From: Nitrospirota bacterium
Lineage (GTDB): Bacteria; Nitrospirota; Nitrospiria; Nitrospirales; Nitrospiraceae
Direction of reading: 5' to 3'
NCBI GenBank assembly: GCA_963782735.1
Contig: CAWAKW010000015.1
Location: 3,451-35,450 of the forward strand
DNA length: 32,000 nt
A program made the position numbers and the translations under genes. Of this stretch, positions 15,473 to 32,000 are shown piece by piece. Position 1 is the first letter of the stretch; each line of letters starts with the position of its first letter. Below the pieces are notes generated by a model. It was given only the letters and a program-made list of their open reading frames with translations, was not told the DNA's origin and made no database searches.

Positions 15473-16739
15473 TTAGCTTGCTGAGGCCCTCGTGAAGACC
15501 GGGATGATGTTACCAGCAATACTGTTGATGTGGCGATTGCCGGATTCGTCCCAAGACATGATGAGACCTCCGAAGCGCTGATCAGGATCGTGGACCAGGT
15601 CCATAAGTCTCTGTACTTCCCAGAGCGAGTCTCTCGAGTCGATCTTGACCTCTTTGCTTTCGCCCGGGTTGATTGGAGACTCATCCTCGATATGCAAGCC
15701 GTCTGTTGCCATAATCTCCGCTGGGTAGTCCGGGTCCATGTTGTTGGCTACGCCAACCTTGTTGAGGAACCGGATACCTGCCGTTGTGAACTCTCCAATC
15801 CTGAGTGGCTGCTCACCGCTGTTGGTCACCTGCAGGGTCATGCGCAGGGCGCGACCAGGAACATCGTAATCTGCGGCGAGCACCTTTACCGTAAGATCCG
15901 ACTTCAAATGAGTCGCCTTGATCTTTGGTTCACCCGCCTGGAGCGGGATGGTATACGGATACTGACTGTCCGTAACGAAGAAACCAACGGCAATCAAAAC
16001 AAAGACACACTCCTAGCATCCCAAAGGCCACTACGCGGTCAACTGGATCGTTCAGCAGTGCGTCTCCACCCTCTTGGGCCAACACACGCGCACGAATGAG
16101 GAACATTGGTCTGATCATGAACCAGCCGATCCAGGCAAATCCAAGCCCACCCCATATCAAATGCCAGAAGAGCCCGGCCGCTAGGCCTGCGGTTTCTGTA
16201 TCGATGGTTCCTCCAACCAACAGCTTTGCTGGGTTGGTGAAGTCTTTATAATTGCCTGTGATATCCATCCAGCCTCCAGGTCCGGCGATAGGCCCGGCCC
16301 CATTGACTGCCAACATCGGGTGGATGTGGTGGTGGCCAGGTAACCGGCCCCTCAGCTTAATCACGTATTCGTAGTCCCCACCGATCTCCATCGGGCCCGA
16401 GGTGAACATCGGAACCCCGTTCACTTTCGAGCTGAGACGTGTGAACACCGAACTTGGGCTCCCCACGTTGATGAACGTACGATTGGGCTTGACGACGGCC
16501 CGAGGCCAGTCTTCCGATATGTGCAACTTCCCCGACAACATCGCTTCATCGTTGACGGCGGTTTTCTGCGGATTCCACCTTGTGTCGTACCATTGAGCGG
16601 TACGCATCCGCAGGAACGGTTCCTGAGAGCGCTCCCCGTGGGCGGCAGCGGGTGAGGCATTGAACACCAGGGTGAGCCCCAGCGTCGCCATCCCGAGGGA
16701 GCCAATCACGCACAATTTGAATATGTTTTTAGCGTTCAT
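15473..16739 (-). pseudogene. amoB: Ammonia monooxygenase subunit B (AmoB), reading frame broken by a single extra nucleotide (true pseudogene or assembly error)
   Basis: Track ORFs 15930-16739 (269 aa) and 15473-15997 (174 aa) together give a colinear AmoB/PmoB. It has a signal peptide, the N-terminal His ([22 protein letters not shown]), the HxH site (GHHHIHPML) and two TM helices. The C-terminal cupredoxin domain follows ([11 protein letters not shown]...LRMTLQVTNSGEQPLRIGEFTTAGIRFLN). The span is 1267 nt (3n+1). The frame switch is confined to 16004-16012, between the downstream-frame TAG at 16013-16015 and [10 protein letters not shown], inside GTGTGTC. Confidence 0.85.
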
Positions 16740-17629
16740 GATTTCCCTTCCGCTAATGTAGCTCCGCCCGACAATCTAGGTGCAACTCCATCCGGCGTAC
16801 CATGTCTCGCTGCAAACTCATCTGTACCGACGATCATGATATCGTTCTTCCGTGACATAACGCCACGTCTACCCTTAACCCAAAAGAACGCTTGCCCGAC
16901 GAAGTGCCCCATTTGCCACCAAATGGTGAACATCAACATGGAGATGAAGGCCGAGAAGAACGCGGAAATCCAGACGGTGTGGCCGCCAAACGTACGCAGC
17001 GATCCCACCTCGATGATTCGGATATACTCAGGCGTCCCCGTACGGACATAGGTGAATCCCATGTAGTCGGCCAGAGACAGCAGCTGACCATCCACCACCA
17101 ACGGTTGATGGCTGTACCCGAATAGGGCATAGTTTGTCGGATTAAACATCATCGCGAACGCCCATACCCCGAATATTGCTGTGAGCATCCAACTCCGAGT
17201 CAGCAACAGGGTACAGTCGAGGATCAGCGCACTGGAGACCATGGTGGCCGGCATGACGAAGTTTGCCGGAAAGTTGGCCCACCAGTACCAGGCAAACAAA
17301 ACCGTGATCCACTTCCCGACGAGCAGCCCCGTGATGCTCAATGTTGCACCAAACGGTTGCCGATAGAACGTCCAGAAGTAGTACATGATCGCCCCGGGAT
17401 ACATGACCTCCACAATTGGTGTGACCGTCACCCAAAACTGCCGGTCCTTCCAATCGATCCAGAAATCCCAGTCTCCTGCAAGCAGGTCGAAGTGCATATG
17501 AAATGTTGCGAACACCCCTAAATACGCAATCGGAAGAAAATACACCGCGTCTATCATTCTTGACAGCTTGACGCCTTCCGGCGGAAGCTTGCTGGCTTTG
17601 ATAATCTCAGCGGTTCTAAACAGTGCCAT
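16736..17629 (-). CDS. amoA: Ammonia monooxygenase subunit A (AmoA)
   Basis: 297 aa. Hallmark CuMMO-A blocks: [84 protein letters not shown] gaggagggg upstream. The stop overlaps the amoB start (ATGA at 16736-16739). Confidence 0.93.
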
Positions 17630-17657
17630 TTGTCCCCTCCTCGCTCGTTCTGAACAT
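17616..17657 (-). promoter_or_regulatory. 13-codon upstream ORF ([13 protein letters not shown]) created by duplication of the amoA RBS/start region
   Basis: Minus strand reads AGGGAGGGGACAG-ATG-TTCAGAAC...GAGGAGGGGACAA-ATG-GCACTG-TTTAGAAC. GGAGGGGACA[G/A]ATG occurs twice, 30 nt apart. The upstream ATG (17657) opens a +1-frame ORF ending at TAG 17616-17618, 14 nt inside amoA. Confidence 0.3.
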
Positions 17658-17692
17658 CTGTCCCCTCCCTAAATATCCAACTGGCTGGGCGG

Positions 17693-17723
17693 CCCCGTTC
17701 TCTCCGGCATCCGGAGTACGGGG
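17693..17723 (-). other. Nested stem-loop in the amoC-amoA intergenic region
   Basis: Minus strand: CCCCGT-a-CTCCGG-atg-CCGGAG-aga-ACGGGG. There is an outer 6-bp and an inner 6-bp helix, in the 121-bp amoC-amoA spacer. Confidence 0.4.
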
Positions 17724-17750
17724 TCAGCCCGCCAAAGTCGACGGCACGTC

Positions 17751-18551
17751 TTAGTACGGGATCACGTGCAAGCAGTCCTTGCTCTCGTTGTTCCAGACCA
17801 CATCGCACAGGTTGGACATGCGCGCTACGATCTGCGCCGCCACGCCGCCCGTGCCCCCGAACAATCCGCACCAGCCCAGGGTCACAAAGCCCCAGTGCAA
17901 CGGCGCCGCAAAGAGTTCATCGACGAACCAGAACGCATGCCCCCACTCATTGAGGCCCACGTTCGGGAGAATCATCATCGGCCCCACGATCGCCCCCACC
18001 AACGGGAACGACACCGCCTTGCTGAACTGCGGCAGCCGGGTCATGGCATACAGATAGCTCGCCACGCCACAGGTGATGTACAACGGGAAGGTGAAGTAGA
18101 AGGCAATGATATGGCTGGCCGTAAAGCTCGTATCGCGGATGATCACTTGATGCCACGAGGCATCCTGCTCGAGCGTATAACTGCCCGCCCAATAGACCCC
18201 GAACACGTACACCGCGAGCCACATCATCCAATAGAAGTACCGCTTGAGCTCGGTCTTGGGATCGACGTTGGCGATGTTGCGATCCCGGGTACTCCAAATC
18301 CACCCGAGGGTGGAGGCCGAGAAGATGATGTTGGAAATCACGTTAAAGCGCCACAGCCCCATCCAGACATTTTCGAACTCCGGCGTCATGGAATCCAGGC
18401 CGTGGGAATACCCGAAGACACGCTGAAAGACGACCTCGGCCCCTACCGCCGCCAACATCGTAAACCAGCCGATCTTGAGGGGCCGGGAATCGTACCAGAG
18501 CGACATGTCGTAGCCCCGATCCGCCCCCCCTCCCCATGTTGTACTAGCCAT
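17751..18551 (-). CDS. amoC: Ammonia monooxygenase subunit C (AmoC)
   Basis: 266 aa. AmoC/PmoC blocks: [76 protein letters not shown] aaggagg 7 nt upstream. Confidence 0.93.
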
Positions 18552-18656
18552 ACACTGACCTCCTTGTTAAGTGATTGAGACCCACCGCTTATTCCAGAGA
18601 AAAATTCTCCGGCGAAACATTGATACTGGTTGCTGCCGTTAGATCTGCGTGGCGGG

Positions 18657-18686
18657 AGATTAGCGGATACAGTTTCTTGATGTCAA
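18657..18686 (-). promoter_or_regulatory. Candidate sigma70 promoter for amoC
   Basis: Minus strand TTGACA (18686-18681), 18-nt spacer, TAATCT (18662-18657). This predicts a ~100-nt 5' leader before ATG 18551. It lies between the IS left end (18739) and amoC. Confidence 0.4.
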
Positions 18687-18738
18687 GTAGAATATCCAAG
18701 GTTGAAGCCTTGTCTCGCTTGCAAAATGCGTGCAACGA

Positions 18739-18757
18739 TCTATGCACTTAACTCCAG
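18739..18757. repeat. IS left terminal inverted repeat
   Basis: ctatgcacttaactccagt, the exact reverse complement of 19721-19739. Confidence 0.85.
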
Positions 18758-18772
18758 TTTATCGCCTACTAT

Positions 18773-19681
18773 TTAGGAGGTGGCTGCGGTCAGCCTCGAG
18801 TAGGGGATAGGCTCAATCGCGACGGTTTGTGCGACAAGTTTGTAGAACAGTTTCCAGCGGTATCTCGACGTTCGACGGTTGAACCGAAATGTGAATTCGT
18901 CGAGATAGGAGTCCAGTTGCTCACGGGACAATGCACCTTTATGGGTACCCAACAACCAGCGTTTCAATAAGGAAGACACCTTGTGCACGCGGGGTAGCAA
19001 AGCCGACGTTATTTTGCCGCTGGCGTTGATCAGGCGCGGTTGGTGCTTGAAGCCTTCCTGCTTCAAGCCCACGTAGGCCTTCCATCCATCTGTGATGACC
19101 ACGGAACCAGGTTCAACCGCGTATTTCACGAAGGCGACGAGCGAGCTCGGAGAGGCAGAGGGAATCCGACGCAGGCAGATGCGCCCAATCCCCTTCCCGT
19201 CGACCTGCGCCGCGATCGCCACCAGGGCCTTGCTTCCCATGTGCCGACGGCTTCGTCCAGCCTCGACGCCCACCACATATGTTTCGTCCACTTCAATCTG
19301 GCCTCCCAGGCTGTCCCAGCCAGGCCGTACCACTGCGCGTCGCAGTTTCTGCAGCCACAACCACGCCGTCCTGTAACTGCCAAAGCCCAGTAGGCGCTGT
19401 AGCCCCAAGGCACTGAGCCTATGTTTCTGATCGGTCATCCACCACATGGCTCGGAACCAGTCCTGCAGAGGAAGGCGGGTTCGATGAAAGATCGTTCCAG
19501 CCGTTACTGAGGCTTGGTATCCACACCGGCGGCACATCAAAAGGCATCGTGTGGTTGTCCAACTGCCGCTGGTCATGCATTGGGGGCAACAGAACCCGGT
19601 CGGCCACCGCAGCCTGGCCAGATAGGCACGGCAGGCACCTTCTGTAGCGAAGCGCTGTTCGAACTCGGAGAGGGTTCGCAT
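18773..19681 (-). CDS. IS1595-family DDE transposase with N-terminal zinc ribbon
   Basis: The track ORF starts at GTG 19693, but ATG at 19681 has SD ggagga 5 nt upstream. Zn-ribbon: CRAYLARLRWPTGFCCPQC...CRRCGYQASVTAGTIFHRTRLPLQDWF. DDE_Tnp_IS1595 blocks: IEVDETYV, VITDGWKAY, YLDEFTFRFNRR. Confidence 0.85.
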   Translation of the reverse strand: MRTLSEFEQRFATEGACRAYLARLRWPTGFCCPQCMTSGSWTTTRCLLMCRRCGYQASVTAGTIFHRTRLPLQDWFRAMWWMTDQKHRLSALGLQRLLGFGSYRTAWLWLQKLRRAVVRPGWDSLGGQIEVDETYVVGVEAGRSRRHMGSKALVAIAAQVDGKGIGRICLRRIPSASPSSLVAFVKYAVEPGSVVITDGWKAYVGLKQEGFKHQPRLINASGKITSALLPRVHKVSSLLKRWLLGTHKGALSREQLDSYLDEFTFRFNRRTSRYRWKLFYKLVAQTVAIEPIPYSRLTAATS

Positions 19682-19720
19682 ATAGTCCTCCACGGTATAA
19701 CTCCAGCACGCCTGGCGCGT

Positions 19721-19739
19721 ACTGGAGTTAAGTGCATAG
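19721..19739. repeat. IS right terminal inverted repeat
   Basis: actggagttaagtgcatag. An internal 9-nt copy taactccag (19698-19706) can pair with 19722-19730. Confidence 0.85.
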
Positions 19740-20077
19740 CCTAATTCGCATGCAAAAAAATATACAATGTTGTATTAAAAATCAAGCTTACGGGGAGATC
19801 TGCACGTTAAGCAATATCCGTGCCGGTTTAGTTATAACGATCAGCTACGTTTTCTCGATCCTGTGCCCACCCTTAACATACGGACGTAACTGACTCATCC
19901 GATTGTTCGTGTGTATTCAAGAGTGGCGCTGCCAGCCAGGACTTCAAGGACCACGGTCACATGGGTCTGACACGCTCGGGTTGCCGGGAGCACAGCCTCC
20001 ATTCCGCTTTCCTGATAATGACTGTTGAAAATGTAGCTGCGCAATCCACGCCACACCCCGTTACTTCGACACGAAGC

Positions 20078-22099
20078 TCAGTGCACATGGTCGTCTGGTG
20101 GCGGACGGAGTTCCTTTTCCCGATTGAGTTGTTCGATCTGCCGCGTCAGTTCGCCGATGTCTGTCCACCCCGCTCCGTCCACGTTAGGAATCCAGCGCGC
20201 CCGCAAATAACCGTAACGATCTATGAGGAACTCCATGTGCTTGGGTGATGTTCCCTCACCAGCCAGATCAGGATTGCTGAGAGTCCTACGGAATAGAGCA
20301 TAGCTGCGTGCGATCTCCGGCGCTCCTTGTGTCGCCACTGGAAAAGGCATGTCTGCTGTGATCGCTGCCAGGTCTTCCGGGTTGAGATCATTCACTGGTG
20401 CCGCCAATATCACCGTATTGGCGCCGCTTAGTGTGGCATAAGCCAGCCGCAGCTGATCGAGCCTCGCGCGCGACTCCGGCCACGAAAACAGGACCAGCAG
20501 TACCGCTTTCTGCCGACGGAAGTCCTTCAAGGTACCGCTCGTACCGTCATGCGCGGAATAGGAGAAATTCTGCGGGGCCATGTAGGGCTGATTGGGGGCG
20601 ACGTAGGGATTAATGAGGCGAGCTTGATAGCCGCGGGAGGTGGCATGGAGAAAGTTCACCACATCCCAACGATCCTCTTCCGAGAGTTTGTCCGCAAATG
20701 CCGGCATGCCGGTACCGGGAATACCATGGGTCAGCCAGTGGAAAAAGTCTCCAGCAGTGTGCTTGGCCGTGTGCGGCTCTGTGAGCAGATCCACCGGTGG
20801 TATAGCGAAAGTCTTGGCCAGAACGCCATTGCCCTTGGCTTGAGGTCCGTGGCAGAGCACGCAGTTCGCGGCAAATATGGTCGCACCGTTGGCAACGGAA
20901 ATGGCATCGAACGGGACCGGTGTCTTGCGGTAGGTTTCCGGGAAAGCTTGAGTGGCAAGGGGAGGCAGCGCTGCAACCAGCGCACAGACCGCCAGTACGG
21001 CCGGGATGGCAATGCGCCACTTCGTCTCCCAGAGCTTGGTTCGACCGAGGGCAACTGCCCCACCTGCCAGGGTAAGCAGTGCGACTCCGACCCCCCCCCC
21101 GATCATTACGCCCAACCCGCCCCAGGTGGCGTCGATGGAGAAGCGGAATGGATAGGGCCAGTCCTCAATGACGGCATGTTTCGCCGGCACGGCGTTGGCT
21201 AGCACTGTCGCCACCAATACCAGTACCAACGCGATTACGAATTCGATGGTGACCCACTTTCGAAGTCCCTGTTTGCCGACTGCAGCCACGTCCGTGTTCT
21301 GGTCGAGTGACGGAATCCAGATGCGGCGCGCACACGCGCCGATCACGAGAATCGGCGCGAGCAACGCAAGCTTTGTATTGAGAAACCAGCCCCAGCTCGT
21401 TGCGACCAATGCGGCGTAGCTCGTGTCCACCATGTCATTCGCAACGATGATGCCGGTGGCCACGACAGCGACCATCACAGGAAGCGCTATTGCAGAGAAA
21501 CGCTTCATGGTCTGGATGTCGAACCGATCCACTTCCTCGTGTGATCGTTTCCCGGCGGTGGCGAACATTATTGAGAGAATAGCCGGCAGCCCTCCGAGCC
21601 AGACGCTTGCCAGAACAATATGCAGCGCGTAAGGCAGCACCGATATCACGGATAGTTCTCCGGCTGCGGAATGGCTTGCGAGCGATCCTGCAGCCAGCGT
21701 GAGTGCAGCGACGGTCGCGCACAGCACATACCGCCAGCGTGCCCAAGGTGAGAAGCGAATGTAGAGAGCCATTCCGAGCACGAGCAGCGCAAGGGCCGCG
21801 CGTGCCGTCCAGATGAGTCCTATGCGGGTTTTTTGTAAGAGTTCTAGCCAGGCTCCCGGGTGCCAAGCATTTTCAGCCAAGCCCGTAGCCTGCGCGGTAG
21901 TCGTGGCCAGCAAGCCTAGTAACCCCAGCAGAAGCGTGGCCGAAAGCCACGGTAACGCCCGTTCCAGACGGGCTAGCCATGGGATGTCGAGTGCGGTTTT
22001 CGCATGCACCGCAATTGCAAGAAAAACGCAACTGCCGATCAGGATCATGTTGGACGCAAGCTGCAGCCAGCGGAGCAGCGCGCCGATGACCTCGATCAT
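20078..22099 (-). CDS. copD: CopD-family membrane protein fused to a c-type cytochrome domain and a C-terminal thioredoxin/redoxin-like domain
   Basis: 673 aa. Residues ~1-385 are polytopic membrane (CopD-like; 10 or more hydrophobic segments). The haem motif CVLCH at aa 413-417 (nt 20849-20863) has a distal GIPGTGMPAF. The last ~170 aa (KAVLLVLFSWPES...FLIDRYGYLRARW) resemble an AhpC/TSA or thioredoxin-fold domain without the active-site Cys. The start overlaps the copC stop (ATGA). Confidence 0.8.
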   Translation of the reverse strand: MIEVIGALLRWLQLASNMILIGSCVFLAIAVHAKTALDIPWLARLERALPWLSATLLLGLLGLLATTTAQATGLAENAWHPGAWLELLQKTRIGLIWTARAALALLVLGMALYIRFSPWARWRYVLCATVAALTLAAGSLASHSAAGELSVISVLPYALHIVLASVWLGGLPAILSIMFATAGKRSHEEVDRFDIQTMKRFSAIALPVMVAVVATGIIVANDMVDTSYAALVATSWGWFLNTKLALLAPILVIGACARRIWIPSLDQNTDVAAVGKQGLRKWVTIEFVIALVLVLVATVLANAVPAKHAVIEDWPYPFRFSIDATWGGLGVMIGGGVGVALLTLAGGAVALGRTKLWETKWRIAIPAVLAVCALVAALPPLATQAFPETYRKTPVPFDAISVANGATIFAANCVLCHGPQAKGNGVLAKTFAIPPVDLLTEPHTAKHTAGDFFHWLTHGIPGTGMPAFADKLSEEDRWDVVNFLHATSRGYQARLINPYVAPNQPYMAPQNFSYSAHDGTSGTLKDFRRQKAVLLVLFSWPESRARLDQLRLAYATLSGANTVILAAPVNDLNPEDLAAITADMPFPVATQGAPEIARSYALFRRTLSNPDLAGEGTSPKHMEFLIDRYGYLRARWIPNVDGAGWTDIGELTRQIEQLNREKELRPPPDDHVH

Positions 22100-22500
22100 T
22101 TCTTTTGCACTTTGCCCTTTACCGTGAAGTCGAAGGACGACTCCACCACGTGACCGTCTACCGACAGTACTCGAAACTTTACTGAATACTTTCCGGGCGT
22201 CAACTCCGGCAATGGGAGAACGATGGACTTTGGGTCATCTGGAGTAAGTTGAGGCTTGATCTCGGTAACGGGATGTTTCTCGGCGTCGAGTACAACAAGC
22301 GACGCGTACTCGCCTTCGAGTTCCTCGTTGAACCAGAGTCGCACCTGCGCCGGCGCCTTGGCGAGGACAGCCCGGCGTGGCGGCTCTGCCTTGACCAGCA
22401 TTGAATGCGCCAGCGCTGGGGCGGCATGCGCGCCCATCGCCATCAGCATCGCTACTCCTATCATGACGCGCTTGAGTGCATGAACCGCCCATGATTCCAT
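22096..22500 (-). CDS. copC: Periplasmic copper-binding protein CopC
   Basis: The track ORF runs to 22674. ATG at 22500 is preceded by aaggagaggggga. Signal peptide ...AAPALA, then mature N-terminus HSMLVKAEP (the His1 Cu(II) ligand position), and SVDGHVV near the C-terminus. Confidence 0.85.
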   Translation of the reverse strand: MESWAVHALKRVMIGVAMLMAMGAHAAPALAHSMLVKAEPPRRAVLAKAPAQVRLWFNEELEGEYASLVVLDAEKHPVTEIKPQLTPDDPKSIVLPLPELTPGKYSVKFRVLSVDGHVVESSFDFTVKGKVQKK

Positions 22501-22594: not shown

Positions 22595-23206
22595 CTACGA
22601 AGCGGTGCGAACCGACGGCTTGCGACGACTGCGCAGGAAAAAGAATATCGCCGCTCCACCGGCAATCGCTGCAAGCGGGACTATGACCATGATGTAGTGC
22701 ATGAAGTGCGAAACCACTCCCGATTCTCCTACCGAGATCGGGAATCGCGCGATATGTTCCTCCTTGCCGCCAACGGTGACTACACCGATGAAATTGCCTG
22801 GCTGGGTGAAGTTATATTCGAAATTAATGAACCCCCCAGGGTAGACCTTGGCCGGCAGGTGAAGGACCGTGTTGGCCTGAAGATCCTGTTCCGAACCCGT
22901 ATCCTTGATGACCCGGACCTCGACGGGCAACGAGCGGAGTTCCCCTTCGATATAATCGAGCACCAACACCGTGCGTCCGATCGACGGAACATCCCCGCAG
23001 AGTTCCCTCGAGGCTGAGGTATCAGGTTGATATTCTGTAAGATGCATGCCGTAGGGTCCGAGCTTGAGTATGCAGAAGTTTTTGTCCAATTCGTGAAAGT
23101 GCTGGGCCTGTGCGGAGAGCGGAGCTCCGATCGCCAATATCAAGAAGCACACGCAAGCAGGTTTGAGAAATTGCAAAGACATCGTCAGTATCCTCATCAT
23201 TATCAT
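22595..23206 (-). CDS. amoD: AmoD/PmoD-family periplasmic, C-terminally membrane-anchored putative copper protein (paralog 1)
   Basis: The probable start is MSLQFLK at 23182 (SD gagga). It has a signal peptide, His-rich mature N-terminus QHFHELD, motif FCILKLGPYGMHLTEYQPD, a second Cys (ELCGDVP), LPVEVRVIKDTGSEQDLQ, and a C-terminal TM helix IMVIVPLAAIAGGAAIFFFL. Position before copCD matches amoD in known AMO clusters. Confidence 0.7.
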   Translation of the reverse strand: MIMMRILTMSLQFLKPACVCFLILAIGAPLSAQAQHFHELDKNFCILKLGPYGMHLTEYQPDTSASRELCGDVPSIGRTVLVLDYIEGELRSLPVEVRVIKDTGSEQDLQANTVLHLPAKVYPGGFINFEYNFTQPGNFIGVVTVGGKEEHIARFPISVGESGVVSHFMHYIMVIVPLAAIAGGAAIFFFLRSRRKPSVRTAS

Positions 23207-23275
23207 CTTTTAGACAGCTCAATTTTCTCGTTGAACCAGAGTTGCAACTGCTCATTGGACCGGATGGCCGGTCGC

Positions 23276-23854
23276 TTACGAAACGGTATTGCTTGACGTT
23301 GTGCCACGCCCGCGCAGGGCAAAGAAGATCACTCCGATAACGGCAACCCCTGCGAGCGCAATCAAGAAGTAGGTGGGGGGTAACCATATTTTTGTTTCCC
23401 CTACCGAGAACGGAAATCGCGATACATGTTTATCACCTACGGTGACCAGACCAACGAATTTGCCAGGCTGGTCAAAGTTATATTCGAAATTAACCGAGCC
23501 GGCAGGGTAGACCTTGGGCGGTAGGTGAAGAATCGTGATGGCCTGAAGGTCTTGCTCCGACCCCGTATCCTTGATGATCCGAACCTCGGTGGGCAACGGG
23601 CGCAGTGCATCTTCCATATAATCGAGCACCACGACTGTACGGCCCGTCGCGGGAATGTCCTCACAGAATTCCTTATTGCGGGTGTTGTCCGGCTGATAGC
23701 CGGTAAAGTGCATGTTGTACGGGCCGATCGTGAGTCTGCACATGTCCTCGGCCAGTGCCAATCCTCCGTGAGCCTGGGCCTGTGTGGAGAATATAACCCC
23801 CATCGCCAGCATCAAGAAGCACAAGCCAGCAGATTTCACCAATTGCACAGCCAT
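23276..23854 (-). CDS. amoD: AmoD/PmoD-family protein (paralog 2, tandem duplicate of paralog 1)
   Basis: ATG at 23854 is preceded by gggaggatcc. MCRLTIGPYNMHFTGYQPD, EFCEDIP, LPTEVRIIKDTGSEQDLQ, C-terminal TM. It shares long identical nucleotide runs with paralog 1, e.g. the 17-mer gttatattcgaaattaa at 22811-22827 and 23477-23493. Confidence 0.7.
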   Translation of the reverse strand: MAVQLVKSAGLCFLMLAMGVIFSTQAQAHGGLALAEDMCRLTIGPYNMHFTGYQPDNTRNKEFCEDIPATGRTVVVLDYMEDALRPLPTEVRIIKDTGSEQDLQAITILHLPPKVYPAGSVNFEYNFDQPGKFVGLVTVGDKHVSRFPFSVGETKIWLPPTYFLIALAGVAVIGVIFFALRGRGTTSSNTVS

Positions 23855-23907: not shown

Positions 23908-24501
23908 CTAGTTTCCCGTACGGCGGACTGCCCACCAATTCCGCAGCCATTTCGATCGTATGAGTATGTATCCAATGAATGCAACTACCAGCACTCCTAT
24001 CGCCGGTCCTGTCATGGTACGTATAAGCTTCTGGTAATCGATCATGTTTACCCGCAAGAGATACTGCGGGTGCTTCATAAGATTCTGCTTCTCCGCCGAA
24101 ATAGTTACCGTATACAGGCCCTCCTCCAGTCTGACTTCGCCCCTGAGCACTCCGTCCGGGTGAGTGCTTGGACGAAAATCTGCCACAATCTGATCTTCTG
24201 TCGCATTGCTCCCACTACCCTTCATGATACGCATACCGATAGGCTCGCTGCGTAACGCCGGGTCCACGAGGTCTACGACTAGGAAGGTGTCGCCTTCCTT
24301 GGGAATGTCTGTGCAGTATTGACCCCTCAGCTCGTATTGCGGCTGGTAGGCGCTGAAATGCACCACGCGCTCACCTACTCGGCGCAAGCATGGGTCGTCT
24401 TCTCCGCTCGTTGTTCCATGTGCAGAAGCGACTCCAGGTTGGTCCAGTGCGGCAAGAAGAATCAGCACCATGAGGCCTGCTCTTGTCACTTGCCTAATCA
24501 T
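23908..24501 (-). CDS. amoE: AmoE-like divergent member of the AmoD/E family
   Basis: 197 aa. SD caggagg. The architecture matches the paralogs (signal peptide, SAHGTTSGEDDPCLRRVGERVVHFSAYQPQ, QYCTDIP, C-terminal TM VLVVAFIGYILI). Met is replaced by Val before the conserved His, and identity is much lower. It is first in the amoE-amoD-amoD-copC-copD series. Confidence 0.6.
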   Translation of the reverse strand: MIRQVTRAGLMVLILLAALDQPGVASAHGTTSGEDDPCLRRVGERVVHFSAYQPQYELRGQYCTDIPKEGDTFLVVDLVDPALRSEPIGMRIMKGSGSNATEDQIVADFRPSTHPDGVLRGEVRLEEGLYTVTISAEKQNLMKHPQYLLRVNMIDYQKLIRTMTGPAIGVLVVAFIGYILIRSKWLRNWWAVRRTGN

Positions 24502-25204
24502 ATATGCGTGATCCTCCTGTTTGGAACCTCACGGTGATCCGTTGCTTCGTATGACGAAGCGGCCTCACCGCATAGTTGCGTATCTAGCCACATGTCCTAT
24601 CAAGGACAATCACTATGATGCCACTAACGCAGGGCAAGATTCTAGCCCCCCTCGCAAGGGAAGAGAAAATCTAACATGTGTTTTTCTGCTGGGCTGGGCC
24701 GAGCTCCAGCGATCCGATATGGAGCAGGCCTGATTGAGAGGATGTCTCGCATGGCGACAGCTTTCCCCCGGGTGTTCGTGAGCAACGGTTTCTTCTGCTG
24801 CAGACGCGGCTGAACTGGTTGCTTGGGGGATCTGCCCTGGTTCATTCTCGGTGTGGTGTGCTAGAAGAGGTACACCGAATTTTGTTCTGGTGCCCATAGG
24901 TTCGAGCAGCGGGCATCGGAGATGCGTTCATGCCATATCGACTCCAAACCATCTTTGACTTGCCAGTGTCAGATGGGCGACAATTATTATTGATGTGAGT
25001 GCGTTCTCTTTCATGAGGCCTCCAATTGCCATATCCATATAATAGCGACATCAATCTTGCGGATGGGTTAGCGTTTCAGCGACAGCTGGGTCTCTGTATG
25101 AGACGTCAGGCAGGGTCGAAAAAGTACTCACGAGCAGCACGACCCATGAAGATCCGACGCTATGGCAATTTTGTTTCTCCGGTCCCAGTAGGATTTCCCC
25201 GAAT

Positions 25205-25825
25205 ATGTTCCAAACCGTCGCACTGAGCGGCAGTCGCGGAGAACGACAGCTGTTCTCCGGCGTCAGCGTGACGGTCAAGCCAGGAACGCTATTGGCTGTG
25301 ACCGGTGAAAACGGCAGTGGGAAGACCAGCTTCCTCCGCATGCTGTGCGGCCTGTTATCTCCTGATGGAGGTACGATCCTTTGGCAGGGGAAAGACATCC
25401 GCCAACTCAAGGAACTCTATAGCGCCCAGCTTACCTATGTAGGGCATCTCAATGGAATTAAGGACGAACTAACCCCGGTCGAAAACCTCAAGGTCTCCGC
25501 TTCCCTGGCCGGCGATAAAAACTCCGGCGCAGTCGTGCAACAGGCATTGGAGGCCGTCGGTCTTGAGCCACGAGTTCATCGTCTGTCGACGAGGGTGCTG
25601 TCGCAAGGACAAAAACGCCGCGTGGCATTGGCTCGTCTCTGGCTTTCCACCCGTCCGTTATGGCTCTTGGATGAGCCGTTCGCTTCACTCGATACTGCAG
25701 CCACCAATTACTTAACCCAACGCTTGCAAGCGCATCTGAGTCATGGCGGCATGGTGGTCGTCGCCACGCACCAGGATATCGCTCTCCCAAGTGATTCCAT
25801 CCAGCACCTGAGGCTGACTCGATGA
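25205..25825 (+). CDS. ccmA: Haem exporter ATP-binding protein CcmA
   Basis: 206 aa. Walker A GENGSGKTS, signature LSQGQKRRVALA, Walker B LWLLDEP. The stop overlaps the ccmB start (ATGA). Confidence 0.88.
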   Translation: MFQTVALSGSRGERQLFSGVSVTVKPGTLLAVTGENGSGKTSFLRMLCGLLSPDGGTILWQGKDIRQLKELYSAQLTYVGHLNGIKDELTPVENLKVSASLAGDKNSGAVVQQALEAVGLEPRVHRLSTRVLSQGQKRRVALARLWLSTRPLWLLDEPFASLDTAATNYLTQRLQAHLSHGGMVVVATHQDIALPSDSIQHLRLTR

Positions 25826-26505
25826 GCCAGCCCAGCATGAGTGCGGCGTTGCGCGGAGTTGTCCGGCGGGATTTTCTTCTGGCCATGCGGCACCGTTCGG
25901 ATGTGGCGATGTCGGTCTTCTTCGTCGTCATCGTCGCGAGCCTCTTCCCTTTGGGAGTTGGGCCGGAGCAGGCGGTGTTGAGGATGATCGCCTCCGGTGT
26001 GCTCTGGGTCACGGCCCTGCTTGCGTGCCTGTTGTCACTGGGGCGCCTGTTCACCGCTGATTATCTCGATGGGGTGCTGGAACAGACGCTTTTGATACCT
26101 CAGCCTCTGGCTGTCCTGGTCGTTGGCAAGGTATTCGCACATTGGGTAATTTCCGGTTTGCCAGTCGTTCTGCTCTCGCCTCTCCTCGGTTTGCAGTTCG
26201 GCCTGAGTGGGGACTCGCTGGTGGTGTTGACGTTATCGCTCTTGCTTGGTACGCCGACGTTGAGTATGATTGGAGCCATCGGTGCTGCGCTGACTCTTGG
26301 GTTGCGGGGGAGCGGTTTACTCGTTGCCCTCCTAGTGCTTCCTCTCTTTATTCCGGTACTGATCTTTGGGGCTGGCGCCGTTACGAATAGTTTGGCCGGA
26401 ATCGGCAGCGAAGCGAATCTGTCGTTACTTGGAGCCTGTTTCATGCTGTCACTCGTTTTTGCGCCCTGGGCCACGGCTGTTGCATTACGCATTGCGTTGG
26501 AATAA
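25822..26505 (+). CDS. ccmB: Haem exporter membrane protein CcmB
   Basis: 227 aa, six hydrophobic segments. It sits between ccmA and ccmC. FLLAMRHRSDV...LFPLGVGPE is typical of CcmB. Confidence 0.85.
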   Translation: MSQPSMSAALRGVVRRDFLLAMRHRSDVAMSVFFVVIVASLFPLGVGPEQAVLRMIASGVLWVTALLACLLSLGRLFTADYLDGVLEQTLLIPQPLAVLVVGKVFAHWVISGLPVVLLSPLLGLQFGLSGDSLVVLTLSLLLGTPTLSMIGAIGAALTLGLRGSGLLVALLVLPLFIPVLIFGAGAVTNSLAGIGSEANLSLLGACFMLSLVFAPWATAVALRIALE

Positions 26506-26516
26506 GACAATTACGG

Positions 26517-27278
26517 ATGAGCGCCACTGGCATTAACTGGTTCAAGTATTCCTCGCCGCAGGCCTTTCACCCTTTGGCCGGGCGGCTGATTCCGTGGTTC
26601 GCCGCCGCGGCGCTCGGTTTGAGTGGTGTCGGCCTGTATATGGGTTTTTTCGTGGCGCCGACCGACGCGACACAAGGTGATGCGTATCGCATTATCTTCG
26701 TCCATGTGCCTGCCGCCTGGATGTCCATGTTCCTCTACGTCATGATGGCCGTGTGGGCCGGGATCGGACTGGGATTGAATGCACGCCCGTCGTTCATGAT
26801 GGCGCAAGCCATCGCCCCCACCGGGGCGCTGTTTACGTTTTTGGCGCTGCTCACCGGGTCGATGTGGGGAAAACCGACCTGGGGGGCCTGGTGGGTGTGG
26901 GATGCCCGGCTGACGTCGGAGCTGATTCTGCTGTTTCAATATATTGGGATCATCTTGCTTCGGTCGTCGATTGACGATCTACGCCGCGCTGATCGCGCGA
27001 GCGCCGTTTTGGCGCTGGTCGGGGTGATCAATGTGCCGATCATCTATTTTTCCGTGAAGTGGTGGAACACGCTGCATCAAGGCGCCTCTGTCAGCATCAC
27101 CGCGGCGCCGAGCATGGCCGGGAGCATGGTGACGGCCATGCTCGTGATGACGCTCGCGTTTTGGATGTACAGCTTCGCTGTGACGCTGGCCCGCATGCGG
27201 TGCGTGATTGTCGAGCGGGAGCGGCAACCTTCGTGGGGCAAGCCGGCCGCGATCCCGGACATCGCGGAGGCGCGCTGA
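26517..27278 (+). CDS. ccmC: Haem handling protein CcmC
   Basis: 253 aa. Trp-rich motif WGKPTWGAWWVWDARLTS; conserved His in FVHVPAAW. Confidence 0.9.
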   Translation: MSATGINWFKYSSPQAFHPLAGRLIPWFAAAALGLSGVGLYMGFFVAPTDATQGDAYRIIFVHVPAAWMSMFLYVMMAVWAGIGLGLNARPSFMMAQAIAPTGALFTFLALLTGSMWGKPTWGAWWVWDARLTSELILLFQYIGIILLRSSIDDLRRADRASAVLALVGVINVPIIYFSVKWWNTLHQGASVSITAAPSMAGSMVTAMLVMTLAFWMYSFAVTLARMRCVIVERERQPSWGKPAAIPDIAEAR

Positions 27279-27433
27279 TGCAGTGGGGGAGTCTGGCAGA
27301 GTTTGTCGCGATGGGCGGGTACGGCCTCTACGTGTGGGTCTCATTCGGGGCCACGGCCCTGTGTATGGGGGGAGAAGTCCTCGCGGTGTGGCGGCGGTCT
27401 GTCGCCGCAGCGGCGGGTCGTGACGAGTTGTAG
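27278..27433 (+). CDS. ccmD: CcmD small membrane protein
   Basis: Below the track size as a separate ORF. ATG at 27278 overlaps the ccmC TGA (TGATG). MQWGSLAEFVAMGGYGLYVWVSFGATALCMGGEVLAVWRR is a single TM helix, with typical CcmD size and position. Confidence 0.75.
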   Translation: MQWGSLAEFVAMGGYGLYVWVSFGATALCMGGEVLAVWRRSVAAAAGRDEL

Positions 27434-27448
27434 GAGGAAACGGAGACG

Positions 27449-27916
27449 ATGACACCTCGACGGAAACGGTTTGTTCTCATCGGGCTGGGCCTGGTCGCTT
27501 TGGCTGTGGCGTCGGCTCTCGTGTTGAATGCGTTCCAAAGCAATCTCGTGTTCTTCTATACGCCGACGCAAGCCGCCAGCGGGGATGTCCCCCAGGGGCG
27601 CAGCTTCCGTATCGGCGGGATGGTCGAAGCGGGAAGTCTCACCCGAGAAGGGGATGGACTGACCGTGCATTTTGTTGTGACCGATATGGCGAAGCGTGTG
27701 CCCGTGACGTTCAAAGGGATCCTCCCGGACCTCTTCAAGGAAGGGAAGGGAGTAGTGGCTCAGGGTCAACTCGCTGCCAATGGGGCATTCCTGGCAAGTG
27801 AAGTGCTGGCGAAGCACGATGAAAACTATATGCCACCGGAAGCTGCGGACGCGCTTGCCAAGGCCAAGACCGTAGGGGCGCAGAGCAGCGGCACCCTGGT
27901 CGTCAATCCACGTTAG
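27449..27916 (+). CDS. ccmE: Haem chaperone CcmE
   Basis: 155 aa. SD ggagga. N-terminal anchor, FRIGGMV, and haem-binding [12 protein letters not shown]. Confidence 0.9.
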
Positions 27917-27924
27917 GAGCCTAC

Positions 27925-29916
27925 ATGATTCCAGAAATTGGTCATTACGCCTTAATTCTCGCGCTCTGTGTGGCGGTGGTGCAGGGATGTCTGCCTATCT
28001 ATGGCGCCGCGGTGGGGAACTCCTCGCTGATGGCCGTCGCGAAACCGGCGGCACGCGGGCAATTCCTCCTTGTTCTACTGGCTTTTTGTTGTCTGGGGTA
28101 TGCTTTTGCGGAGAAAGACTTCTCCGTGCTCTACGTCGCGGCCACGTCAAACTCGCAACTCCCGTTGCATTATCGCCTTGCAGCCATCTGGGGCGCGCAT
28201 GAGGGCTCGTTGCTTCTCTGGATGTTCATCCTCAGCATCTGGATGGTCGCCGTCTCCTTCTTCTCCACCCGTCTGCCGGAGGCGATGCTCGCGCGCATCT
28301 TGGGCGTCATGGGCCTCGTCAGTGTGGGATTTCTTTTATTCATGTTGACCGTCTCCAATCCGTTTGAGCGGTTGATCCCGGCGGCTCTCGATGGGCGCGA
28401 TTTGAATCCGCTGCTGCAGGACCCAGGCATGGTAATCCACCCGCCGATGCTTTACATGGGATACGTGGGGTTCTCCGTGGCGTTTTCCTTTGCGATCGCC
28501 GCGCTCTTGGGGGGCACGTTGGACGCGGCTTGGGCGCGCTGGTCTCGCCCCTGGACCACAGTCGCCTGGTGTTTTATGACCGTGGGGGTTGCGATGGGGA
28601 GCGGCTGGGCTTATTACGAGCTGGGCTGGGGTGGCTGGTGGTTTTGGGATCCAGTTGAAAATGCTTCCTTCATGCCCTGGCTGGCCGGCACCGCCTTGAT
28701 GCATTCGCTGGCGGTTACCGATAAACGGGGCGGGTTCAAAGCCTGGAGTGTGTTGCTCGCCATTATGGCGTTCTCGCTCAGTTTGCTCGGGACCTTCTTA
28801 GTCCGCTCTGGAGTCTTGACTTCAGTGCATGCATTTGCCACCGATCCAAAGCGTGGCCTATTTATTCTCATATTCCTGGCAGTGGTGATCGGCGGTTCTC
28901 TGGTTCTGTACGCCTGGCGGGCGCCCCGCGTGGGTTTGGGCGGGAGCTTCGCCCTGATCTCGCGTGAAGGAATGTTGCTGGCGAACAATGTGTTGTTGGT
29001 TGCGGCCTTGGGATCGGTGCTTTTGGGTACGTTGTATCCCTTGTTCTTGGACGCGCTGGATCTCGGAAAAATCTCGGTCGGTCCTCCGTACTTCGACACA
29101 GTCTTTCTTCCCCTGATGACTCCCGCCATATTTTTGATGGGGATCGGGCCGCTGGCTCAATGGAAGCAGGCGAGCCTGCCGGCCTTGGCCATCCGCCTGC
29201 GCTGGGCCTTCGGCGTCAGCCTGGCGACTGCCCTGGCGGTGCCGTGGCTCATGGGCCAATGGACGCCGCTGATCAGTCTGGGACTGCTGCTGGCCTTCTG
29301 GATTCTGGCGACGATCCTGGTGGATCTGCGGGAGCGGCTGCTCCAGGCCGAGGGCGGCGGCGTCGGGGGCCGCCTGGCCGCGCTGCCCCGCGCCTATTGG
29401 GGCATGGTACTGGCCCACTGCGGCGTGGCCCTGTTCATCGTCGGCGTGACCATGGTGAAGGGTTTCGAAGTGGAGCAGGACGTGCGGATGAACGTCGGTG
29501 AGACTGCCACGCTCGGCGGCTACACGTTCCGTTTTGACGGGACACAACAGGTAAATGGCCCGAACTATGTCGCGGCGCGGGGAACGTTTCATGTGAGCCA
29601 GGATGGCCGAGAGGTGACGGTGATGTATCCCGAAAAGCGACGGTACTTCGTGCAGAACCAGACGATGACCGAAGCGGCGATTGCACCGGGGTTATTGCGC
29701 GATCTGTACGTGTCATTGGGCGAGCCGATCGAGGGCGGAGCCTGGAGCGTGCGGCTCTATCACAAGCCCTTTATAGATTGGATCTGGGGAGGCTGTTTGG
29801 TCATGGCTTTGGGTGGCGTCCTGGCCGTCAGTGATCGGCGCTATCGGCTGGCGTGGCGGCGAAAAGAGGCCGCGGTGCCGGCGGCGACGCAGATGGCGCG
29901 CACGACCGTCTCATGA
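27925..29916 (+). CDS. ccmF: Cytochrome c haem lyase subunit CcmF
   Basis: 663 aa. Trp-rich motif WGGWWFWDPVENASFMPW; polytopic membrane protein. Confidence 0.92.
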   Translation: MIPEIGHYALILALCVAVVQGCLPIYGAAVGNSSLMAVAKPAARGQFLLVLLAFCCLGYAFAEKDFSVLYVAATSNSQLPLHYRLAAIWGAHEGSLLLWMFILSIWMVAVSFFSTRLPEAMLARILGVMGLVSVGFLLFMLTVSNPFERLIPAALDGRDLNPLLQDPGMVIHPPMLYMGYVGFSVAFSFAIAALLGGTLDAAWARWSRPWTTVAWCFMTVGVAMGSGWAYYELGWGGWWFWDPVENASFMPWLAGTALMHSLAVTDKRGGFKAWSVLLAIMAFSLSLLGTFLVRSGVLTSVHAFATDPKRGLFILIFLAVVIGGSLVLYAWRAPRVGLGGSFALISREGMLLANNVLLVAALGSVLLGTLYPLFLDALDLGKISVGPPYFDTVFLPLMTPAIFLMGIGPLAQWKQASLPALAIRLRWAFGVSLATALAVPWLMGQWTPLISLGLLLAFWILATILVDLRERLLQAEGGGVGGRLAALPRAYWGMVLAHCGVALFIVGVTMVKGFEVEQDVRMNVGETATLGGYTFRFDGTQQVNGPNYVAARGTFHVSQDGREVTVMYPEKRRYFVQNQTMTEAAIAPGLLRDLYVSLGEPIEGGAWSVRLYHKPFIDWIWGGCLVMALGGVLAVSDRRYRLAWRRKEAAVPAATQMARTTVS

Positions 29917-30440
29917 ACCGGTTTCTCATCCCGTTTGGGCTCTTCGTCGTCGTGGTCGGTTTTCTTGCCGTCGGACTGACGCTCAACCCGCGTGAATTGC
30001 CGTCTCCCTTAGTCGGGAAGGCGGCGCCTGAGTTTTCCCTGCCGCAGCTCCACGATTCCGGAAAAGTGATTTCGTCGAACGAGCTTAAGGGCAAGGTCTG
30101 GCTGCTCAACTTCTGGGCATCCTGGTGCGGGGGCTGTAAGGACGAGCACCCTGTGCTCATCCACCTCGCACAATCCGGAGCGGTGCCCATCTATGGCATG
30201 GACTATAAGGATCAACGGAGCGAGGCCCTGGCGTGGTTGAAGGAGTGGGGCAATCCCTATCAGATCGTTGCCGTAGATGAGCCGGGGCGTGTCGGCATTA
30301 ATTACGGGGTCTACGGTGTACCGGAAACCTACGTGATCGATAAGCAGGGGGTCATCCGCTACAAGCAGATTGGCCCGCTGCGCGAGGACATCTTGGAGAA
30401 AAAGATTTTGCCCCTGGTCAGGGAGTTACAGAACCAATGA
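29913..30440 (+). CDS. ccmG: Thiol:disulfide oxidoreductase CcmG/DsbE
   Basis: The track ORF starts at 29853. ATG at 29913 (MNRFLIPFGLFVVVVGFL) overlaps the ccmF stop (ATGA). Active site WASWCGGC; GVYGVPETYVID. Confidence 0.88.
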   Translation: MNRFLIPFGLFVVVVGFLAVGLTLNPRELPSPLVGKAAPEFSLPQLHDSGKVISSNELKGKVWLLNFWASWCGGCKDEHPVLIHLAQSGAVPIYGMDYKDQRSEALAWLKEWGNPYQIVAVDEPGRVGINYGVYGVPETYVIDKQGVIRYKQIGPLREDILEKKILPLVRELQNQ

Positions 30441-30898
30441 GATGGCTGTGGGTGCTCATGCTGCTGCTCCCCAGTCTCGCTACGGCGTACGAGGCCCAGC
30501 CGCTTGCTGCGAACCCGCAGGCTGAGGCGCGTTTGAAAGCCCTCGCCGTCGAGTTGCGCTGCCTGGTCTGTCAGAATCAGACGCTGGCGGACTCGAATGC
30601 ACCATTGGCCGAGGACTTGCGTCGAGAAGTGAGGGAAATGATCGCAAAAGATATGAGCGACAAGGAGATTATCGATTTTCTCGTCACTCGATACGGAGAC
30701 TTCGTCTTATACCGACCGCCCTGGAAGCTCACGACTACGTTGCTCTGGCTGGGGCCGTTTCTCTTATTGGGAGTTGGCGCAACGGGATTAGTGTTTGCGC
30801 TACGCAGGAGACAGAAAAAGGTTACCGACGTGACATTGTCGGAAGCTGAGCATAACCGTGTCGCAAAACTGCTTTCCGAAGGAGTTCATCGCCCTTGA
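30437..30898 (+). CDS. ccmH: Cytochrome c maturation protein CcmH
   Basis: 153 aa. LRCLVCQNQTLADSNAPLAEDLR motif and a C-terminal TM. The start overlaps the ccmG stop (ATGA). Confidence 0.88.
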   Translation: MRWLWVLMLLLPSLATAYEAQPLAANPQAEARLKALAVELRCLVCQNQTLADSNAPLAEDLRREVREMIAKDMSDKEIIDFLVTRYGDFVLYRPPWKLTTTLLWLGPFLLLGVGATGLVFALRRRQKKVTDVTLSEAEHNRVAKLLSEGVHRP

Positions 30899-32000
30899 CC
30901 ATCATATTTTGGCTGATCGCATCGAGCATGACCCTTCTCATCCTCGGTCTCCTGCTGTGGCCACTGCTGAAACGCACAGTCGCCGTAACGGGAGAGCAGG
31001 AAAAGACGTTGGCTATTTTCCGGCAGCAGTTTGCAGAATTGGGGCAAGATCGCGCCAACGGTGTGCTCACTGACGAATTGTATGAGCAGGCGCGACGTGA
31101 GCTTGAACGCCGTTTGCTGGAGGAAACAGGCACCACGGAGACGACTCCCACAAGGGCACCACGAGAAGTAAGTAGCAGGCCGGTTGCGATTGCACTGGCC
31201 ATCATCGTGCCGGCTGTCAGTGGGTTGCTCTATTGGGAATTGGGGAATCCACTTGCCATGACGCAGCCAACCGCGGCTTCTTTGTCTGCGCAAGGGGGGC
31301 CAGAAGGTGCGAGTCCATTTTCTGACGGACTTGGGCCACTGATCGAGCGACTCAAGCAGAAAATGCAGCAGAATCCGAATGATGGCGAGGGATGGGCATT
31401 GCTCGCACGTTCGTACATGGGAATGGGGCGTTACGCCGAAGCCGCACTGGCATATGAGAATGCCACAAAACTAATTCCTGATGATGCCCAGTTATTCGCC
31501 GATTATGCCGATGCCATGGGGGTCCTCCATGGTCGTAAGTTGGAGGGAAAGCCTGAGGCCTTGATTCAACAGGCGCTGAAGATCGATCCACGTAATGTGA
31601 AGGCGCTGATGTTGGAAGGGACTGTGGCGTTCAACCGAAAAAACTTTGCTCGTGCGGCGAAGGACTGGGAGCAAGCTCGTGCCAACCTTCCTGCGGACGT
31701 AGATCCGGAGATGACACAGCAACTGACGGCTGCTATAGAAGAGGCTCGGAGCCAACTCGGTGGTGGCCAAAGCATGATGTCTGCGCTTACGGAACCTGCG
31801 GCGCCGGCTCAGCCAACCGGGCAGCCGCGCGTAATCAAGGGTACGGTGGCGATGGCGCCCAGCTTGGCCGGCAAGGGATCTCCGACGGACACATTGTTTG
31901 TATTTGCACGCGAAATGAATGGCCCACCCATGCCGGTGTCGATCGTACGGGCGACGAGGAAAGATCTCCCGTTTACGTTTCAGCTCGATGACTCGACCAG
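30895..32000 (+). CDS. ccmI: TPR-containing cytochrome c maturation protein CcmI/CycH (3' end beyond window)
   Basis: Open at the window edge, so absent from the track. My translation from TTG 30895 (overlapping the ccmH TGA): (M)TIIFWLIASSMTLLILGLLLWPLLKR...QQFAELGQDRANGVLTDELYEQARRELERRLLEE...second TM...TPR region NDGEGWALLARSYMGMGRYAEAALAYENATKLIPDDAQLFADYADA...KALMLEGTVAFNRKNFARAAKDWEQA...VIKGTVAMAP...LFVFAREMNGPPMPVSIVRATRKDLPFTFQLDDST. The start codon is uncertain. Confidence 0.75.
   Translation, partial: MTIIFWLIASSMTLLILGLLLWPLLKRTVAVTGEQEKTLAIFRQQFAELGQDRANGVLTDELYEQARRELERRLLEETGTTETTPTRAPREVSSRPVAIALAIIVPAVSGLLYWELGNPLAMTQPTAASLSAQGGPEGASPFSDGLGPLIERLKQKMQQNPNDGEGWALLARSYMGMGRYAEAALAYENATKLIPDDAQLFADYADAMGVLHGRKLEGKPEALIQQALKIDPRNVKALMLEGTVAFNRKNFARAAKDWEQARANLPADVDPEMTQQLTAAIEEARSQLGGGQSMMSALTEPAAPAQPTGQPRVIKGTVAMAPSLAGKGSPTDTLFVFAREMNGPPMPVSIVRATRKDLPFTFQLDDST

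Follow-up and report, generated by a model that had tools for sequence, protein, structure and literature searches.

We analysed a window of 32,000 nucleotides (nt) of Nitrospirota DNA (assembly GCA_963782735.1, contig CAWAKW010000015.1, positions 3,451 to 35,450) and concentrated on the block between window positions 15473 and 32000, in which genes of an ammonia monooxygenase (AMO) and its cop neighbours lie on the minus strand and ccm genes lie on the plus strand. Genes were identified from a listing of open reading frames (ORFs) and from Pfam and NCBIfam profile searches, together with a comparison of the small ORFs with the PmoD structure 6CPD. The block contains amoC, amoA and amoB, three genes of the AmoD/AmoE family, copC, a copD-cytochrome c fusion and nine ccm genes, all of them where a first-pass annotation, made from the letters alone, had placed them (Table 1). 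The spacer between the two divergent blocks, for which that annotation gave about 700 bp, measures 703 bp. A 1-kb element of the IS1595 family of insertion sequences (IS) separates copD from amoC.

Table 1 Features of the studied block and its immediate surroundings (window coordinates)
Feature	Position	Strand	Evidence or remark
Terminator-like hairpin with T-run	15408..15425	-	48 nt past the amoB stop; consensus scan only, site total not above chance
amoB	15473..16739	-	Split into ORFs 15930-16739 and 15473-15997 by an extra base near 16007
amoA	16736..17629	-	297 aa; NCBIfam AmoA_BACT 312 bits, cut-off 290; neighbour-joining tree
amoC	17751..18551	-	Pfam AmoC E=7e-106; NCBIfam AmoC_BACT 342 bits, cut-off 319
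IS1595-family element, 1000 bp	18740..19739	-	Perfect 19-nt terminal inverted repeats at 18740-18758 and 19721-19739
copD-cytochrome c fusion, 673 aa	20078..22099	-	Pfam CopD, Cytochrom_C and Cytochrome_CBB3; CVLCH motif
copC, periplasmic copper-binding, 134 aa	22096..22500	-	Pfam CopC E=1.3e-21; NCBIfam copper_CopC; 134 aa in relatives
amoD2 (comammox-specific second amoD)	22595..23182 (mechanical ORF to 23206)	-	54-60% identical to the amoD ORF
amoD	23276..23854 (mechanical ORF to 23950)	-	6CPD PmoD E=2.9e-23
amoE-like (PmoD/AmoD/AmoE family)	23908..24501	-	6CPD PmoD E=1.2e-6; tblastn synteny
Divergent spacer amoE/ccmA, 703 bp	24502..25204		BLAST alignments break here; poorly conserved among relatives
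ccmA	25205..25825	+	NCBIfam CcmA E=3e-73
ccmB	25822..26505	+	TIGR01190 E=1e-68
ccmC	26517..27278	+	TIGR01191 E=1e-67
ccmD, 51 aa	27278..27433	+	Translation; the 51-aa equivalent in relatives matches Pfam CcmD
ccmE	27449..27916	+	NF009729 E=5e-64
ccmF	27925..29916	+	TIGR00353 E=6e-231
ccmG/dsbE, 175 aa	29913..30440 (mechanical ORF from 29853)	+	TIGR00385 E=1e-54; 175 aa in relatives
ccmH	30437..30898	+	NrfF/CcmH-type match E=3.5e-30; Pfam CcmH on the identical protein in relatives
ccmI, first 368 of about 558 codons	30895..32000 (window end)	+	TIGR03142 E=1.5e-28; 558 aa in relatives

The three structural genes match the subunit models for AMO and particulate methane monooxygenase in Pfam and NCBIfam with E-values from 1e-56 to 1e-106. 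AmoC and AmoA are full length and score above the NCBIfam equivalog cut-offs. AmoA keeps the motif SLRTFGGH and other conserved AmoA blocks, as the first-pass annotation had noticed, and ends in a long C-terminal tail, which its close relatives in clade B of the complete ammonia oxidisers (comammox) also have. The amoB gene is written as two overlapping ORFs and is discussed separately below.

Upstream of copC, the amoE-like, amoD and amoD2 ORFs gave no match to any Pfam or NCBIfam model, and their family was recognised by structure comparison, by synteny and, for amoD2, by its identity to amoD. Hydrophobic C-terminal segments are seen in the translations of this family, and amoD encodes a PmoD-like cupredoxin with a C-terminal membrane anchor. 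We set the amoD start at the methionine that gives about 192 residues (195 aa in the gene calls of relatives). In Nitrosospira, the ortholog of the amoE-like gene (50-54% identity) comes first after amoB, amoD is 58-68% identical to amoD of Nitrosospira and Nitrosovibrio, and amoD2 was found by tblastn in all comammox loci compared. CopD of Nitrosospira aligns with the window protein across its whole 673 aa at 61% identity, and the cytochrome c fusion is therefore not peculiar to comammox. The last 186 residues of CopD (about 490-673; window 20078-20630) align weakly, at full length, with AhpC/TSA (E=1.5e-4, short of the Pfam cut-off). No cysteine was seen at the expected peroxiredoxin active-site position of this thioredoxin-fold region. 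Judged by the full-length alignment, the same domain is present in Nitrosospira CopD.

On the other strand, all nine genes of a System I set, ccmABCDEFGHI, form one cluster whose last gene is cut by the end of the window. An exact look-up of the window AmoA returned no record, whereas that of the window CcmH found at least 22 contigs that carry the identical protein. On five of these, ccmH is followed by ccmI (558 aa), a 153-aa Ig_CycH paralog, HaoA (a 569-aa multihaem protein), HaoB, cytochrome c554 and CycB (an NNT-family cytochrome), in that order, which agrees with the prediction of the first-pass annotation that hao-cycAB would follow directly on ccmI. The divergent spacer contains no convincing ORF or RNA family, its ORF at 24613-24897 belonging to no family, and a scan of the whole window with Rfam returned nothing at gathering thresholds. 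Counts of promoter and terminator sites across 15.3-25.3 kb, spacer included, did not rise above the shuffled expectation.

To place the locus, we took an alignment of AmoA to scan a single genome from each GTDB species, which yielded 80 loci, and compared gene order by tblastn of the window proteins against the loci of relatives; trees of AmoA and of the IS copies were built by neighbour joining. The window AmoA is 99% identical to that of L001 (metagenome-assembled genome (MAG) MFD00031.bin.1.108, CAVPBK010000005.1) and 89-98% identical to those of 36 more Nitrospira/Nitrospiraceae loci, among them CG24A, CG24C, RSF3, RSF6 and Rifle RCB. Identity drops to 57-63% for the group formed by clade A MAGs (RCA, ST-bin4, SG-bin2) and Nitrosospira/Nitrosomonadaceae, and to 57-60% for the latter taken by themselves. 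In the tree the window AmoA falls inside clade B, beside L001. AmoC and AmoB tell the same story, with 92-100% and 83-98% identity to clade B, 74-78% and 55-70% to clade A, and 65% and 54-58% to betaproteobacterial ammonia-oxidising bacteria (beta-AOB). At the DNA level the window shares 96.7% identity with L001 across 13.3 kb and 95.4% with L143 (ENA contig ERZ25039489:contig_33320) across 15.3 kb, which indicates a close relative, probably of the same species, but a different genome. AmoC, AmoD, AmoD2, CopC and CcmA of L001 are 100% identical to those of the window. L001 and L143 differ from it in having an intact amoB and in lacking the segment at window 9580-14370.

The gene order leads to the same placement. 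In nine clade B genome loci, and likewise on many metagenome contigs, ccm diverges from amoE-amoD-amoD2-copC-copD-IS1595-amoC-amoA-amoB, and syntenic relatives lie on MAG contigs (up to 2.9 Mb) assigned to Nitrospira/Nitrospiraceae. This order, with IS1595 in its place between copD and amoC, is ancestral to clade B and did not arise by rearrangement in the present genome. Published clade B regions (Palomo et al., 10.1101/138586 / ISME J 2018, with CG24A, CG24C, RSF3 and RSF6; RCB in PMC6852473), whose AmoA is 89-95% identical to that of the window, share its gene order, two amoD genes, copCD upstream of amoCAB, a transposase gene by amoC and a divergent, adjacent ccm cluster; a CcmI-like extra gene and haoAB-cycAB after ccmI are shared with them by the relatives of the window. 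The window departs from these regions in its private one-base insertion in amoB and in a frame-broken block of SulP and two-component genes downstream of amoB. Consistent with these observations, comammox genomes were reported to have two amoD copies and the order amoBAC-copDC, a CcmI duplication was described as unique to clade B, and amo, hao and ccm were found co-located in all comammox genomes but that of N. inopinata (10.1101/138586). Poghosyan et al. (2019, PMC6852473) reported that RCB has a gene of a transposase family next to amoCAB and that System I ccm occurs in all comammox. Taken together, we assign window 15473-32000 to the chromosome of a comammox Nitrospira of clade B, as its ammonia-oxidation region, with a probability of roughly 93%.

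The first-pass annotation had called the block a comammox-type island, a recognition rather than a novelty, and this is how it turned out. Since Palomo et al. and Poghosyan et al. describe the arrangement, the finding amounts to a correct recognition of known biology; the layout is published, and is useful for annotation without being new biology. Of the peculiarities that the annotation singled out, only the amoB lesion proved to be private to this sequence. The arrangement that it took to be unusual, with amoE-amoD-amoD-copCD upstream of amoCAB and next to ccm, is the comammox norm and in its exact form the clade B norm, and the IS, which it regarded as an oddity of this locus, is fixed between copD and amoC throughout the clade. 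It also spoke of several IS elements, of which one is visible in the window.

The element itself has the likeness of IS1595-family insertion sequences. Its ORF (18773-19693) encodes a zinc ribbon followed by a DDE_Tnp_IS1595 domain (Pfam PF12760 and PF12762; NCBIfam NF033547), it is 1 kb long, and for its 19-nt terminal inverted repeats no match is expected by chance. Each of the nine clade B genomes covering the site has the ORF between copD and amoC, and in eight the ORF is intact; the two inverted repeats are conserved across clade B genomes with at most one mismatch. Synonymous divergence of the IS1595 gene (0.37-0.84) equals the range of its neighbours, indicating that it diverged together with them. 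Its ratio of non-synonymous to synonymous substitution rates (dN/dS) in clade B genomes is 0.09-0.24, similar to those of copC, copD and amoD. A search of metagenome contigs with the exact inverted repeat added 56 stretches (L087-L142), in which IS1595 adjoins amoC wherever the contig reaches the flanking gene; 14 short stretches hold the IS only.

Two other accounts of the region have to be weighed against a clade B origin with an ancestral layout. According to the one, the locus comes from a betaproteobacterial ammonia oxidiser (Nitrosomonadaceae) or from clade A comammox. Beta-AOB such as Nitrosospira multiformis and Nitrosovibrio (L057, L073, L077) indeed have the same gene families, with amoE/amoD orthologs 50-68% identical to those of the window and a CopD fusion of about 700 aa with cytochrome c, and clade A (Rifle RCA, L055) shares the order amoE-amoD-amoD-copC-copD-amoC-amoA-amoB on one strand and has System I ccm in the neighbourhood. 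Yet Nitrosospira and Nitrosovibrio have the order amoA-amoB-amoE-amoD-copC-copD, and those beta-AOB loci that reach further upstream show amoC immediately ahead of amoA, so that amoE-amoD-copC-copD stands behind amoB and not ahead of amoC. Only one amoD is present, no ccm lies near the beta-AOB loci examined, and their AmoA is 59-60% identical to that of the window; ccm and hao of beta-AOB were likewise reported not to be co-located with amo (10.1101/138586). Clade A differs in having a gap of about 400 bp instead of IS1595 between copD and amoC and in the location of ccm (ccmGHI), some 7 kb downstream from amoB and on the opposite strand. AmoA does not nest in Nitrosomonadaceae, which do not share the synteny either, and the AmoA identities, the synteny and the tree together refute an origin in beta-AOB or clade A, to which we assign next to no probability. 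According to the other account, IS1595 is an ordinary mobile insertion that marks a recent horizontal transfer or rearrangement of amoCAB at this place. Perfect terminal inverted repeats and a full-length transposase ORF favour it, and transposases near amoCAB have been attributed in the literature to plasticity or lateral transfer (PMC6852473, PMC12903955). Against this stand the identical site in nine of nine clade B genomes, the amoC context of the metagenome stretches, a synonymous divergence like that of the neighbours, the lack of a visible target-site duplication around the element and the lack of a compositional break. Unlike active IS1595 elements, this one is fixed by amoC and co-diverging, and its putative catalytic residues are replaced in some copies; the varied sites, target-site duplications and invariant catalytic residues of an active IS were not found. 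A recent insertion is therefore very improbable.

Three observations weigh against reading the region as that of a working clade B complete nitrifier. Neither a 16S rRNA nor an nxr gene lies within the window, and nitrite oxidation by the host is deduced from relatives only; the CG24 MAGs were reported to carry nitrite oxidoreductase (NXR) (10.1101/138586). The window ends in ccmI, and hao-cycAB is known from the relatives and not from this genome. Moreover, amoB as written cannot yield a full-length subunit, so the operon may be non-functional in this genome.

The amoB lesion consists of one extra base near 16007, within the second transmembrane helix. On the minus strand the window reads GGAGTGTGTC, where about 35 aligned loci of relatives read GGAGTG-GTC or GGAGTGTG-C; the extra base lies outside any homopolymer and turns GTG|GTC into GTGTGTC. 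The two ORFs span positions 1-211 and 214-380 of the Monooxygenase_B profile and encode pieces of 269 and 174 aa, each under the full-length NCBIfam cut-off. Deleting the base restores an AmoB of 421 aa that is 98% identical to that of L001. The lesion is private to this sequence and, if real, is very recent. That it is real, and that the strain, having only just lost a functional AMO, now lives by nitrite oxidation or uses another amoB copy, is somewhat the less probable of the two explanations, but it has points in its favour: the insertion is non-homopolymeric and missing from every aligned relative, no other frame-breaking indel occurs in about 15 kb of coding sequence of the cluster, the 9.8-15.4 kb block just downstream of amoB has at least eight frame-breaking indels relative to L032 and L009, and the absence of window 9580-14370 from L001 suggests genuine erosion beside the operon. 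On the other hand, only two conservative changes, L195I and I251V, are private to the window among the seven residues in which the repaired AmoB differs from that of L001, with no sign of relaxed selection, and amoC, amoA, amoD, copCD and ccm all have unbroken frames, their proteins sharing 98-100% identity with those of L001. In addition, many single-base indels at non-homopolymer sites occur in clusters in the ccm and amoD/E genes of L143 and L081 (the latter from ENA ERZ25039492), both long-read ENA assemblies of the same or related species, so errors of this type exist in long-read data. We consider an assembly or sequencing error somewhat likelier than true inactivation. If the frameshift were real, it would reveal a natural comammox strain fresh from the loss of ammonia oxidation and would bear on how easily the trait is lost.

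Two further ideas about amoB were examined and found no support. The amoB dN/dS relative to L001 is 0.35, but it derives from just eight non-synonymous and seven synonymous changes, and polarising these with 19 other sequences leaves the two conservative changes on the window branch, which speaks against relaxed selection. A programmed +1 frameshift is not supported either: CUU_U stands at the lesion and AGGAG 5 nt upstream, at a spacing which we take to be unlike that of prfB, but there is no stop or rare codon, and the site is not conserved, all relatives reading in frame. As a separate observation, the single-base indels of L143 and L081 break ccmA, ccmC, ccmF, ccmI, haoB, amoE and amoD. 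Frameshifts in such assemblies should not be taken as pseudogenes without read checks.

From established knowledge of the families, the region would work as follows. AmoCAB, a membrane copper monooxygenase, would oxidise ammonia to hydroxylamine, while AmoE, AmoD and AmoD2 would act as membrane-anchored cupredoxins of the PmoD type in copper handling or AMO assembly. CopC and CopD, the latter fused to cytochrome c and a thioredoxin-like domain, would import copper into the cell. The divergent System I Ccm proteins would attach haem to multi-haem cytochromes. HaoA with HaoB, cytochrome c554 and cytochrome cM552, whose genes follow ccmI in relatives, would pass electrons from hydroxylamine to the quinone pool, and the nitrite oxidoreductase of the host would be encoded elsewhere. 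The cluster marks the host as a probable clade B complete nitrifier, a clade known only from MAGs in the cited literature and represented by MAGs throughout our analysis.

A side lead of the analysis is the conserved transposase-like gene by amoC. Most of its metagenome copies are found between copD and amoC; at least ten have other surroundings, with no copD upstream or no amoA/amoB after amoC, and these IS1595-amoC copies outside the operon fit the extra, non-operonal amoC reported for clade B in the literature. On the sequence they are apparently segmental duplications that include the IS. In the tree, IS1595 copies of both contexts are intermixed and at times paired very closely, a mixing that suggests gene conversion or repeated duplication. 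The ORF is at least 290 aa long in 52 of the 56 copies, and a protein search returned more than 120 distinct clusters at 90% identity, with 82-98% identity and almost all of 300-304 aa. Conservation is uneven along the protein. The zinc-ribbon N-terminus (residues 1-120) has a mean identity of 91%, invariant cysteines and a median dN/dS of 0.06, compared with 78% and 0.24 for the DDE part, so that the N-terminal, DNA-binding part is under roughly fourfold stronger purifying selection. D136, D202 and H237, which are putatively catalytic by comparison with IS1595 motifs, are replaced in four, one and eight of the 52 intact copies, respectively.

This pattern would fit a transposase-derived gene that is retained by the host. 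It is conceivable, if on balance rather doubtful, that the gene encodes a domesticated DNA-binding protein, and that a module of promoter-like site, transposase-like gene, inverted repeats and amoC has been kept in front of amoCAB. Such a protein could be a regulator of amoC or amoCAB expression, or could mediate the duplication and gene conversion of amoC. In the literature, the transposase-like gene before amoC figures solely as a mark of gene transfer; the pattern of selection seen here suggests that the host keeps the gene for a reason.

Several details of the copies deserve mention. The non-operonal IS1595-amoC units include L127:79-2099, L113, L124, L131, L140, L104, L111 and L141, and their neighbours include a tRNA-editing domain gene, a haem peroxidase gene and pseudouridine synthase/ATP-grasp genes. 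Some are near-identical to operon-linked copies on other contigs (for example L127/L123 and L131/L090). BLAST boundaries at 19738-19742 had suggested that the duplicated unit starts at the outer inverted repeat. This is refuted by the second-context copies, which keep 60-100 nt of upstream homology including TTGACA-N15-TATATT. At the other end, the stretch between amoC and amoA holds a hairpin rich in GC (CCCCGTACTCCGG..CCGGAGAGAACGGGG; window 17690-17716, minus strand), located just past the end of homology with the non-operonal amoC copies.

Short motifs also surround the element. The promoter-like TTGACA-N15-TATATT of the relatives, which starts with TTGATT in the window (19759-19785, minus strand), lies just upstream of the left inverted repeat, is directed into the transposase gene and amoC, and is conserved in both IS-amoC contexts (L011, L124, L140, L104, L141). 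By the right inverted repeat, a conserved TTGCACGCATTTTGCA (window 18720-18735, minus strand) resembles a sigma-54 -24/-12 site with TG replacing GG, and a conserved TTGACA (18681-18686, minus strand) follows about 35 nt beyond it, 130 nt upstream of amoC. In L124:1030-1095 and L131:1183-1250 (IS orientation), the right repeat is followed by a hairpin-like insert of about 30-40 nt and then by a near-perfect second repeat, which is suggestive of local duplication on a small scale or of a miniature insertion.

Outside the studied block, genes for transketolase (tkt), 4-alpha-glucanotransferase (malQ), a nirK-like oxidase and a truncated globin (trHb) are syntenic in the related clade B MAGs. The 9.8-15.4 kb block holds a SulP permease, a response regulator, a PAS histidine kinase and a remnant of a Fis-type regulator, and L143, which like L001 is without window 9580-14370, has an IS3-type helix-turn-helix gene nearby. 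A comparison of GC content and tetranucleotide profiles revealed no break between flanks, amo block and ccm block (GC 0.56-0.59; tetranucleotide correlations of about 0.86), and thus no signal of recent transfer within the window. A tandem-repeat scan of the window found none, and the repeat which the first-pass annotation associated with Nitrospira-like genomes was not confirmed, no further search for it having been made. Finally, the CcmH protein (window 30437-30898) is 100% identical on L081-L086, contigs whose surrounding DNA is only about 87-88% identical to the window; the identity of the protein amid diverged DNA points to a probably very strong constraint on this small protein.

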